From Naegleria gruberi (taxonomy: Eukaryota), in the NCBI GenBank assembly GCA_000004985.1, contig GG739303.1: 1,921 bases of DNA, one strand, 5' to 3'. Below are positions 141-1,921 of the stretch, piece after piece (position 1 is the stretch's first letter; each line of letters starts with the position of its first letter). The notes under the pieces were generated by a model. It did no database searches, was not told where the DNA came from, and was given only the letters and a program-made list of their open reading frames with translations. The position numbers were made by a program, and so were the translations under genes.

Positions 141-480
141 CACAAAAAAATGCGCAAGGGGAATAACAACAAGATGATTGCCAATAATGAAAATAATTCT
201 TTTGTCAAACTACCCTACGAAATACATTGTCACTTATTATCATATTGGCGACATTTAAATATTATATTAAATTTTCAATCAATTTGTAAAAAAATTAATG
301 TATTCCAAGTATTGTCATGAAGAAAAGGATTTTTTCAATGAATTTTATTGGAATTTATTTGAAAATTATTTACCAATTAATTATAAATTAAGGAACGAAT
401 TTAATGTGTATAAAAATGAATTGATCAAACAAGGAAAATTAAAAAGAATTGTATTATTAACTTTATATGCTAAATATAAT

Positions 481-538
481 ATGCATAAATTACATGATAA
501 AGAATATAGTATTAAATGTTCTATAATGGGTGGAGTTG
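481..538 (+). CDS. Ras-family small GTPase, exon 1: MHKLHDKEYSIKCSIMGGV + first base of the next Gly codon. ATG at 481-483 sits 7 codons upstream of the Ras-like N-terminal 'KEY'. The exon ends in a GTATGT donor at 539-544.
   Basis: Aligns to the Ras/Rap N-terminus + P-loop 'TEYKLVVVGAGGVGKS'. The reading continues across the intron as GGVG|KTSIVFQ. There is an A at -3 of the ATG. The in-frame ORF upstream (298-480) is K/N/Y/F-rich and looks like junk. Confidence 0.7.
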
Positions 539-578
539 GTATGTTGTACCAAATTTAAATTATTAAATTACAAATTAG
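539..578 (+). other. Spliceosomal intron 1 (40 nt, phase 1), GTATGT...TAG.
   Basis: A canonical GTATGT donor follows the Gly codon. An AG lies at 577-578. Removing it joins g538+gt579-580 = GGT (Gly) and continues 'KTSIVFQ', which matches Ras 'KSALTIQ'. Inference from in-frame homology across the junction. Confidence 0.75.
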
Positions 579-704
579 GTAAAACATCAATTGTGTTTCA
601 ATTTTTTAGAAATATGTTATGCTATGATCTATCATGTGTAGATGATTATGCGAAATATATACTAGTTGATGAAAATACATTTAGAATAGAAATATTTGAT
701 ACAG
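579..704 (+). CDS. Ras-family GTPase, exon 2 (126 nt): (G)KTSIVFQFFRNMLCYDLSCVDDYAKYILVDENTFRIEIFDT + g.
   Basis: Matches Ras '[44 protein letters not shown]'. Switch I is 'YDLSCVDDY' (Ser in the Thr35 position) and the G3 motif begins with 'DT'. The exon ends at a GTTAGT donor (705-710). Reading through the donor hits TAG/TGA stops. Confidence 0.8.
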
Positions 705-760
705 GTTAGTATTTAAATAGTTTACAATTTTTTATTAATTATATTAAATATTGAAAATAG
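705..760 (+). other. Spliceosomal intron 2 (56 nt, phase 1), GTTAGT...AATAG. A second in-frame AG lies 9 nt downstream (768-769).
   Basis: Needed to join 'IFDT' to the '..AEEYSTLR' switch II segment. An in-frame TAG (709-711 in the exon frame) means read-through is not possible. Confidence 0.7.
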
Positions 761-790
761 ATGCGGCAGAGGAATATTCAACATTGAGAG
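761..790 (+). CDS. Ras-family GTPase, exon 3: a 30-nt micro-exon that encodes switch II, (D)AAEEYSTLR + g.
   Basis: With g704 the protein reads 'DT D A A E E Y S T L R', against Ras 'DT A G Q E E Y S A M R'. It is flanked by an AG at 759-760 and a GTAAGT donor at 791-796. Confidence 0.7.
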
Positions 791-832
791 GTAAGTCAAT
801 ATATTTTATTATTATATATCTAATATACATAG
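791..832 (+). other. Spliceosomal intron 3 (42 nt, phase 1), GTAAGT...CATAG, with a CTAAT branch-like motif about 11 nt upstream of the AG.
   Basis: Consensus donor GTAAGT. Removing it joins aga g|at caa = 'R D Q C', against Ras 'MRDQYMR'. The intron is a multiple of 3 long and open, which is why the six-frame track shows one ORF running through it. Confidence 0.8.
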
Positions 833-1047
833 ATCAATGTATTCGATCCAGTAAATGTTTTATACTTGTTTGTGATGTATTTGATTTCAAGTCAATTAAC
901 AGTTTAAAATTTATGATCGAACAAATATTAAATATTAAAGAATCAAATGACATTCCAATTGTATTTACATTAAATAAGATTGATTTAATTAATAATAATA
1001 ATTTGGAGGAAATGGTTGAAAAATTAAAAATGAAATTAATATTAATT
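833..1047 (+). CDS. Ras-family GTPase, exon 4: (D)QCIRSSKCFILVCDVFDFKSINSLKFMIEQILNIKESNDIPIVFTLNKIDLINNNNLEEMVEKLKMKLILI. In this frame it stops at TAA 1048-1050. The true 3' end of the exon is unresolved (see findings).
   Basis: Matches Ras '[53 protein letters not shown]'. The G4 NKxD motif is 'NKID'. A poly-Asn insertion follows. Confidence 0.7.
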
Positions 1048-1265
1048 TAATTGAATATTATCAATTAATAAATACTAAAATAGTAACATCATGTGCTATA
1101 AAAGGAGATGGTGTTGAAAATATATTTGAGGAAGGAATCAGGTTAACAAGATTTGAAAACCAAACTGATTTAAAATTGCTATTTAAAGAAATTATTCAAA
1201 AAGATGTAAAATATTTAAAATCCACAACAACAAATATTAGAGAACATAAATGTTTGACCATGTGA
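1020..1265 (+). CDS. Ras-family GTPase, terminal coding segment in frame 0: KIKNEININLIEYYQLINTKIVTSCAIKGDGVENIFEEGIRLTRFENQTDLKLLFKEIIQKDVKYLKSTTTNIREHKCLTM*. It carries the G5 motif and the CaaX box. The stop is TGA 1263-1265. The real 5' boundary of this segment is unknown and overlaps the frame-1 exon.
   Basis: 'YYQLINTKIVTSCAIKGDGVENIF' matches Ras '[21 protein letters not shown]'. The C-terminus 'CLTM' is a CaaX prenylation box immediately followed by a stop. This frame is open back to TGA 1017-1019. Confidence 0.7.
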   Translation, partial: KIKNEININLIEYYQLINTKIVTSCAIKGDGVENIFEEGIRLTRFENQTDLKLLFKEIIQKDVKYLKSTTTNIREHKCLTM

Positions 1266-1384: not shown

Positions 1385-1921
1385 ATGAAACGAACTTTGG
1401 ATTCAGTGCTGGACATGGTTGAGTGTAATGAAGATACTCAACAACACCAGCATTCCGAATGTTTGGGAAACATAAACAAGAAGAAACTGCAAGAAGTAAC
1501 AATTCGCAACTTTCCTACTGTTGCAAATATTTACAATATCACATACAAAGTAATGGATTACAACGTGTTTTATGAATCGAGAGGTAAAACTCTTCTATCA
1601 TGCACAATTAATAATGTGGTCTGCATTGTCAAAAGAGTGAAGCAACATGAAGGAGTAAAATCAATTTTGAGTTTATATTTACCTAGTGATAATCCAGATT
1701 ATTGCTTCACACTGAAAGGAACATGTTTGGGAACAATGTTTAGGAATGGGCAAGTTGACCAAATTGACATTTTTCAATTTGTGAAAGATTTACTTGGCAC
1801 ACTTGTATTATTGGAAAGAGGAAATATTACACACAATGATATCAAACCAGATAATATTGTCCTATATGATGGACATTGGTTTCTTATAGATTATGAACTG
1901 TCAAAGTCATTCAAACTGAAA
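1385..1921 (+). CDS. Protein-kinase-like domain protein, 5'-partial (179 codons, open to the window end): MKRTLDSVLDMVECNEDTQQHQHSECLGNINKKKLQEVTIRNFPTVANIYNITYKVMDYNVFYESRGKTLLSCTINNVVCIVKRVKQHEGVKSILSLYLPSDNPDYCFTLKGTCLGTMFRNGQVDQIDIFQFVKDLLGTLVLLERGNITHNDIKPDNIVLYDGHWFLIDYELSKSFKLK...
   Basis: The ORF is open from ATG 1385 to the last base, and 1385-1921 is exactly 179 codons. The catalytic loop 'HNDIKPDNIVL' matches the ePK 'HRDLKPxNILL'. 'LIDYELS' is where DFG would be, 17 residues later, which is correct ePK spacing. The first in-frame stop upstream is TAG 1313-1315, and there is no ATG between it and 1385. Not in the supplied ORF track because it has no stop within the window. Confidence 0.8.
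   Translation, partial: MKRTLDSVLDMVECNEDTQQHQHSECLGNINKKKLQEVTIRNFPTVANIYNITYKVMDYNVFYESRGKTLLSCTINNVVCIVKRVKQHEGVKSILSLYLPSDNPDYCFTLKGTCLGTMFRNGQVDQIDIFQFVKDLLGTLVLLERGNITHNDIKPDNIVLYDGHWFLIDYELSKSFKLK

Follow-up and report, generated by a model that had tools for sequence, protein, structure and literature searches.

The window, by which we mean the whole stretch of DNA analysed, is an entire orphan scaffold of 1,921 nt from the Sanger draft assembly of Naegleria gruberi NEG-M. It ranks among the smallest scaffolds of that assembly, to judge from the accession numbers of the protein family described below, which increase with scaffold size. It carries a Ras-like gene of 25% GC, followed by the 5' part of a neighbouring gene (Table 1). 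Comparison of the neighbouring ORF with Pfam gave a Pkinase match with an E-value of 2e-5, which is under the Pfam cut-off. Upstream of the Ras-like gene, the first 78 positions of the scaffold hold an open plus-strand frame that ends with a stop at 76–78 (FSFDYLNFKTHCSLELSNVSFPLNN*), perhaps the 3' end of another gene. A search of the window against Rfam returned nothing at E ≤ 1.

Table 1. Features of the Ras-like gene and of its neighbour in the 1,921-nt window.
Feature	Position	Strand	Description
Exon 1	150..538	+	Start ATG 150 (MRKGNNNK...); N-terminal F-box-like LPYEIHCHLLSY motif; holds the second frame break
A7 run, second frame break (frame 0 to frame 1)	288..294	+	One A surplus
Intron 1	539..578	+	40 nt, GTATGT...TAG, phase 1; divides the P-loop GGVG/KTS
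Exon 2	579..704	+	P-loop KTS, switch I YDLSCVDDY, up to DT
Intron 2	705..760	+	56 nt, GTTAGT...TAG, phase 1
Exon 3	761..790	+	30 nt; switch II, DAAEEYSTLR
Intron 3	791..832	+	42 nt, GTAAGT...TAG, phase 1
Exon 4, single last exon	833..1265	+	DQCIRSS, NKID, frame break, G5, CaaX, stop
NKID (G4)	973-984	+	Frame 1
Upstream TGA closing frame 0	1017..1019	+	Left limit of the possible shift zone
A5 run, alternative missing-base site	1019..1023	+	Repair gives EKIKNEIN
A5 run, most likely missing-base site	1026..1030	+	Expected A6: TTA AAA AAT GAA ATT = LKNEI
Premature TAA	1048..1050	+	Terminates the as-is frame and the annotated 143-aa model
G5 TSCAIK	1086-1103	+	Frame 0
CaaX CLTM	1251-1262	+	Frame 0; then stop TGA 1263-1265
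Neighbouring gene, outside the feature under study	1385..1921	+	5' part of a protein kinase ORF, cut off by the scaffold end

The three introns of the Ras-like gene connect its exons in phase. Exon 1 ends one base into the codon for the last Gly of the P-loop GGVG, and the spliced product reads GGVGKTS, YDLSCVDDY, DTDAAEEYSTLRDQ, and NKID. Apart from discrepancies of one base in two A runs, the gene is intact in its start codon, its 3 canonical phase-1 introns, and its CaaX box and stop; the 325 codons of the gene repaired at both runs contain no in-frame stop. The annotated protein, EFC35376.1/XP_002668120.1 (P0001; “predicted protein”, NAEGRDRAFT_76969, 143 aa), was found as a near-identical match of the repaired protein in a profile search and is exactly the spliced translation of the sequence as it stands, MHKLHD...NKIDLINNNNLEEMVEKLKMKLILI. 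It starts at the Met of MHKLHD, downstream of the break in exon 1, and ends at the premature TAA in exon 4. The frame break is already embedded in this truncated public gene model.

In exon 4, NKID on the one side and G5 with the CaaX box on the other have a common reading frame only after the addition of one base. The frame at positions mod 3 = 1 reads ...NKIDLINNNNLEEMVEKLKMKLILI (in longer form, ...IPIVFTLNKIDLINNNNLEEMVEKLKMKLILI) and ends at the TAA. The frame at positions mod 3 = 0 is open after the upstream TGA for 81 codons (KIKNEININLIEYYQLINTKIVTSCAIKGDG...CLTM; KIKNEININLIEYYQLINTKIVTSCAIKGDGVENIFEEG...REHKCLTM) until the TGA behind the CaaX box. Both limiting stop codons and the two A5 runs, as given in an initial annotation of this DNA, were confirmed by direct reading. 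An open stretch of 81 codons has a chance of ~3.5e-4 at the local base composition, and the other two frames across 1020–1262 contain 11 and 13 stops. Therefore, the frame-0 stretch is coding, and the break is real in the sequence. Around the break, GT dinucleotides occur only at 1015, 1083, and 1093, GC only at 1095, and AG only at 1007, 1082, 1103, and 1106. Our re-scan thus bears out the earlier observation that GT is absent from 1017–1082, and a −1/+2 shift within about 1020–1047 is needed that a canonical intron cannot supply, there being no donor.

The closest paralogue of the window gene is a 310-aa “ras family small GTPase” of N. gruberi, XP_002673837.1 (P0153). A comparison with orthologous loci had been proposed as a check. 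This paralogue is continuous across the break: its sequence ...NKMDLITDNNEIDKLKNEIINIINEYQLTNTNIVICSAKTGEGIENAF... corresponds in the window to EKLK in frame 1 and then NEININLIEY...TSCAIKGDGVENIF in frame 0. At the point at which the window switches frame, both P0153 and P0003 read DKLKNEIINIINEY, and the conserved block KLKNEI.I..EY straddles the break. Over a longer stretch, P0153 reads ...IPIIFALNKMDLITDNNEIDKLKNEIINIINEYQLTNTNIVICSAKTGEGIENAFLEGVKLIRFGNQTNL...KKCILN, and its counterparts in the window are NKIDLINNNNLEEMVEKLK in frame 1 and NEININLIEYYQLINTKIVTSCAIKGDGVENIFEEGIRLTRFENQTDL...HKCLTM in frame 0. The addition of a single A brings the window gene into colinearity with the paralogues.

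The comparison was also made with the DNA of the paralogue gene on a metagenome contig (L001, ERR1078381). This DNA begins at the same place in L001 and in a second ENA contig (L002), and the comparison covers the gene downstream of exon 1. Introns 2 and 3 occupy the same positions in the paralogue locus and in the window gene, and intron 2 also has the same donor hexamer. In L001, a single ORF (339–751) runs unbroken from DQYMRTGD to the stop; therefore, the “G4 exon” and “G5/CaaX exon” into which the initial annotation had divided this region are one exon, in the window (833–1265) as in the closest paralogue. The alignment of the exon DNA contains gaps of 9, 2, and 9 nt. The sole gap that is not divisible by three lies within about 1027–1038 of the window, at about 1036–1037 and next to the A run, and an equivalent placement is a one-base gap inside TTA-AAAAA-TG versus TTG-AAAAA-TG. 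The differences from the paralogue 3' of the break, counted by frame-0 codon position, number 22, 21, and 34. This excess at the third position indicates that the region downstream of the break evolved as frame-0 coding sequence.

Every possible −1 or +2 junction was scored against the family HMM and against P0153. Any junction within 1020–1047 gave a stop-free protein. The family HMM was nearly flat across the junctions (233–237 bits) and left the exact position unfixed. Against P0153, the −1 repair scored 633 in the run 1026–1030 and 631 in the run 1019–1023, and a +2 junction at 1017 scored 632. These values support the A runs as the likely site, as had been supposed, with a preference for 1026–1030 over the neighbouring sites by a small margin. 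Together, the alignments place the shift at about 1020–1038; the missing A most likely belongs to the run 1026–1030. Further downstream, an AU-only inverted repeat (TTAATTGA...TCAATTAA) spans 1047–1068, and a second hairpin spans 1084–1116.

A second break of the same kind, which the initial annotation did not mention, lies in the A7 run of exon 1. The N-terminal part (ATG 150, MRKGNNNKMIANNENNSFVKLPYEIHCHLLSYWRHLNIILNFQSICKK) is in frame 0, which stops at TGA 318–320, and its continuation (LMYSKYCHEEKDFFNEFYWNLFENYLPIN...) is in frame 1. Exon 1 is colinear with P0153 from the Met1 of the paralogue (MRSFNNENTFVNLPLEIH...). At the break P0153 reads NFQTSCKKLMYDDD / NFQTSCKKLMYDDDQCDYFNEFYF, and the residues CKK-LMY pin the break to the A7 run, for which an A6 run would be expected (TGT AAA AAA TTA ATG TAT = CKKLMY). 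Against P0153, the highest score (633) came from dropping one base, no matter where in 288–294; the family HMM was flat at this site, with 235.2 for the repair in the A7 run against a maximum of 235.6. With both repairs, the gene encodes a 325-aa protein that aligns with P0153 from Met1 to the CaaX box with 148 identities. Its score against the family HMM is 235 bits with the N-terminal part and 213 bits without it, a cost of 22 bits. The two breaks are 740 nt apart and opposite in sign: one A too many in exon 1 and one A too few in exon 4.

The repaired protein matches the Pfam Ras family (PF00071) over residues 127–282 with an E-value of 6.5e-20 and 71.8 bits (cut-off 21.6). The alignment crosses the junction in exon 4, which upholds the initial view that the two pieces form one Ras-like protein. 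The best PDB matches are H-, N-, and K-Ras, with E-values of about 4e-19. The similarity to human H-, K-, and N-Ras (PDB 8elv_A, 9glw_A) extends from the P-loop to NKxD and includes RDQ..R and DIP.V...NK.DL. The window protein differs from human Ras in (i) an N-terminal extension of ~120 aa, (ii) degenerate catalytic residues in switch I and switch II, and (iii) a longer linker between G4 and G5. The initial annotation had described both G1 and G3 as degenerate. This holds for G3, where DxxG is lost (DTDAAEEY versus DTAGQEEY, with Gly60 replaced by Ala and Gln61 by Ala). It appears not to hold for G1, which reads GGVGKTS once intron 1 is removed; in the spliced sequence SIMGGVGKTS, GGVGKT is present, and an Ile stands at the first Gly of GxxxxGK[ST]. 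In G2, Thr35 is replaced by Cys (YDLSCVDDY versus YDPTIEDSY). The window protein belongs to the Ras family by fold and sequence, and it may not be a working GTPase.

Naegleria and Willaertia contain a family of proteins annotated “ras family small GTPase”, which are 310–366 aa in length and have a common N-terminal extension and a CaaX end. In addition to P0153, its members include P0002/P0151, P0155, and P0013, P0004 and P0009 of N. lovaniensis, and P0017 of Willaertia magna; in the profile search with the repaired protein, P0002, P0004, and P0009 aligned over query residues 7–275. The window copy and P0153 share MR..NNEN.FV.LP.EIH, NFQ..CKKLMY, FNEFY, KRIVLLTLY, the P-loop GGVGK[ST], NK.DLI, KLKNEI.I..EY, an SAK-like G5, FEEG..L.RF.NQT.L, and the CaaX box. 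The window copy differs from P0153 in (i) its two one-base frame breaks, (ii) Cys for the switch I Thr, DTDA for DTxG, and SCAIK for SAK, and (iii) a 3-residue insertion after NKIDLINNN. By its colinear match to several full-length members, N-terminal region included, the window gene is a member of this heterolobosean, N-terminally extended Ras family (LPxEI ... FNEFWW ... Ras ... CaaX). The N-terminal motif LPxEI(x)2(I/L)LS...FQS..KK...FNEFWW is common to positions 150–290 of the window and to P0004, P0017, P0021, P0105, and P0143. A Pfam search of the window protein for an F-box (PF00646/PF12937) gave no match at E ≤ 1, and 5 of 10 paralogues gave F-box-like matches, all below the cut-off (E-values of 7e-5 to 7e-3). 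The N-terminal region may thus be a diverged F-box fused to Ras. The combination of F-box and Ras has so far been described for the euglenozoan TbFRP, and the study describing it did not find a Naegleria orthologue of TbFRP (PMC3593210).

The kinase ORF connects the window with a larger part of the assembly. From MDYNVF (1553) on, 118 of its 123 residues are identical to the N. gruberi protein P0157, a 249-aa “predicted protein” that is encoded on a 363,092-nt scaffold and whose model begins exactly at the internal Met of MDYNVF. This identity shows that the window is an unmerged, partly redundant piece: it corresponds to part of a large scaffold as an allele, as a duplicate, or as a copy that was left unmerged. 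No Ras copy matching the window gene is annotated on the scaffold that carries P0157. A similar pair within NEG-M is formed by P0002, which is encoded on a 9.6-kb scaffold, and P0151, which is encoded on a 337-kb scaffold (326 of 333 residues identical). P0152, an ORF from an independent metagenome, matches the small-scaffold version P0002 in 143 of 143 residues. Therefore, some small scaffolds of the assembly are real diverged haplotypes or recent duplicates.

The break in exon 4 is very probably a plain one-base indel, of whichever origin, and not an intron or a recoding site. Of the four causes put forward in the initial annotation, a homopolymer error in the assembly and a frameshift in a young pseudogene remain, and a non-canonical intron and programmed frameshifting or slippage fall away. 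A one-base frame break of this sort is well known and ordinary.

We lean slightly towards reading the missing A and the extra A as errors of the draft sequence. Both breaks would then be miscalls of homopolymer length in a low-coverage, AT-rich, unplaced draft scaffold, and the real gene would be intact, with four exons encoding a 325-aa protein. We infer this because (i) both lesions are changes of ±1 in homopolymers on a 1.9-kb AT-rich leftover scaffold, (ii) the gene is otherwise without decay in its start, splice sites, CaaX box, and absence of stops, and (iii) the scaffold is an unmerged, partly redundant piece of sequence present on the 363-kb scaffold. It is in such a setting that leftover contigs of low coverage or low quality are usually found. 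On the other side, good-quality Sanger sequence shows no particular tendency to miscounts of A5–A7 runs, and two miscounts 740 nt apart would require poor or single-pass reads.

Comparable cases appear in a 2026 preprint on the Naegleria kinetochore (bioRxiv 10.64898/2026.08.18.745565), which also supplies a NEG-M transcriptome (FigShare 10.6084/m9.figshare.33274116): by read mapping, frameshifts of a single A in the A runs of assemblies from other Heterolobosea were identified there as errors. As in the window, a single-A difference splits the gene into two frames in these cases, and continuous homologues revealed the cause. These cases differ from the window in that they come from Trinity, HiFi, or other assemblies and concern runs of 10 A's, whereas the window is Sanger sequence with runs of 5–7.

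Several searches were made for an independent copy of the locus. Exact-product look-ups with the window ORFs, P0001, P0153, and P0157 gave nothing. The complete repaired protein, used as the query in a word-index protein search, also gave nothing, although P0001 is in the collection, so that this search is evidently insensitive; the same search with the repaired exon 4 returned P0001 only. A scan of viral-contig DNA for the locus gave no match, and a metagenome scan found none by protein and none by a DNA pattern with a variable A run. No independent copy that would bear out an intact version of the gene was found, which counts against the error reading.

It is possible, if short of probable, that both one-base indels are genuine. 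The gene copy in the window would then be a young pseudogene or an allele inactivated not long ago, would lie on a fragment of a diverged duplicate or haplotype, and would belong to a large family with fast turnover. Natural slippage indels also concentrate in homopolymers, A runs included, and Sanger sequencing at normal coverage seldom miscounts short A runs. In agreement with such an origin, the scaffold is a diverged copy of the 363-kb region, differing from it at 5 of 123 kinase residues, and the identity of P0002 and P0152 attests that a small scaffold of NEG-M can be a real variant. The family is also large, and some of its members have an odd or broken exon structure. The catalytic motifs of the window protein are degenerate (T to C in switch I, DTDA in G3, SCAIK in G5), but the earlier use of this degeneracy as an argument for a pseudogene is weak, since the motifs are degenerate in the intact members P0013 and P0009 as well. 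In a gene of 25% GC, by our own estimate, ~6% of random substitutions would introduce a stop codon. Two frameshifts that are accompanied by no stop and no splice damage, with the CaaX box and the stop intact, fit only a very recent event. Moreover, errors are most frequent in the smallest scaffolds of the assembly, to which this one belongs.

Recoding, by which the full-length protein would be made from the sequence as it is, is very improbable. It would involve slippage of the P-site tRNA-Lys or of RNA polymerase, by +1 at the A7 run 288–294 and by −1 at the A5 run 1026–1030. Both breaks do fall on AAA codons in A runs, where tRNA-Lys could re-pair after the shift, and a −1 shift after AAA 1027–1029 gives exactly the conserved EKLK-NEIN. 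The zero frame at 1018–1032 (GAA AAA TTA AAA ATG), however, is without an X_XXY_YYZ heptamer. The 90 nt downstream (1031–1120) fold better than shuffles (z = −3.4), which may reflect no more than repetitive coding sequence, but the first hairpin starts at ~1047, ~16 nt past the run compared with a usual spacing of 5–9 nt, and is AU-only. Transcriptional slippage, as it is known, takes place on runs much longer than A5. Shifts of opposite sign would be needed at both sites, so that their low efficiencies would multiply, and the closest paralogue and all other aligned members that were checked encode the stretch in one frame. A doubly recoded nuclear Naegleria gene, perhaps one in which recoding holds a degenerate Ras-like protein at a very low level, is more improbable still, and a literature search combining Naegleria gruberi with frameshift returned no report of such recoding.

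The obligatory frameshifts of Euplotes are mostly +1 shifts at AAA-TAA or AAA-TAG. They resemble the situation in the window in that an AT-rich protist gene has to change frame near a stop codon. The window differs from them in that (i) the stop is preceded by ATT and a −1/+2 shift is needed and (ii) the conserved residues put the shift ~20 nt before the stop and the paralogues need no shift at all. A ciliate or Euplotes genetic code was also considered for the window and rejected; reading TAA as Gln opens frame 1 only into sequence unlike the family. The TGA follows directly after the CaaX box and therefore functions as a stop here.

A non-canonical intron of 3n+2 nt joining the frames between 1020 and 1083 is hardly conceivable: the lack of a canonical solution and the unusual intron architecture elsewhere in the gene at the paralogue locus would speak for it, but 1017–1082 holds no GT or GC donor, the only AG (1082–1083) needs a donor at a position mod 3 = 2 where no GT, GC, or AT stands, and every codon of the paralogue has its counterpart in the window, so that nothing is spare and a removal would delete conserved residues. 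A canonical intron from GT 1015 to AG 1083 was rejected; its 69 nt leave the frame unchanged, and the product runs into the TAA.

If the two A-run discrepancies are errors, XP_002668120.1 (143 aa) is a truncated model and should be a 325-aa N-terminally extended Ras member of Naegleria. If they are real, the window adds another young pseudogene to a large, fast-turning gene family. The case matters little outside curation. Either way, it shows that a frame break on one of the smallest scaffolds in the 2010 draft of N. gruberi should not be taken for unusual biology before the reads have been inspected.

The paralogue locus has an irregularity of its own in the switch II region. On L001 (in the stretch 171–338), the switch II exon of the paralogue (228–255) measures 28 nt and does not keep the reading frame. 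Only by retaining the dinucleotide GG at 297–298, which sits between an AG (295–296) and a second GTAAGT (299–304), can the frame be recovered together with a perfect DTYGQEEYSAMRDQYMR. By its sequence context, this GG would be a 2-nt micro-exon, or else two introns would abut here. In the JGI model of P0153, the NEG-M paralogue, the switch II exon is left out entirely (DILDT/YQYMR).
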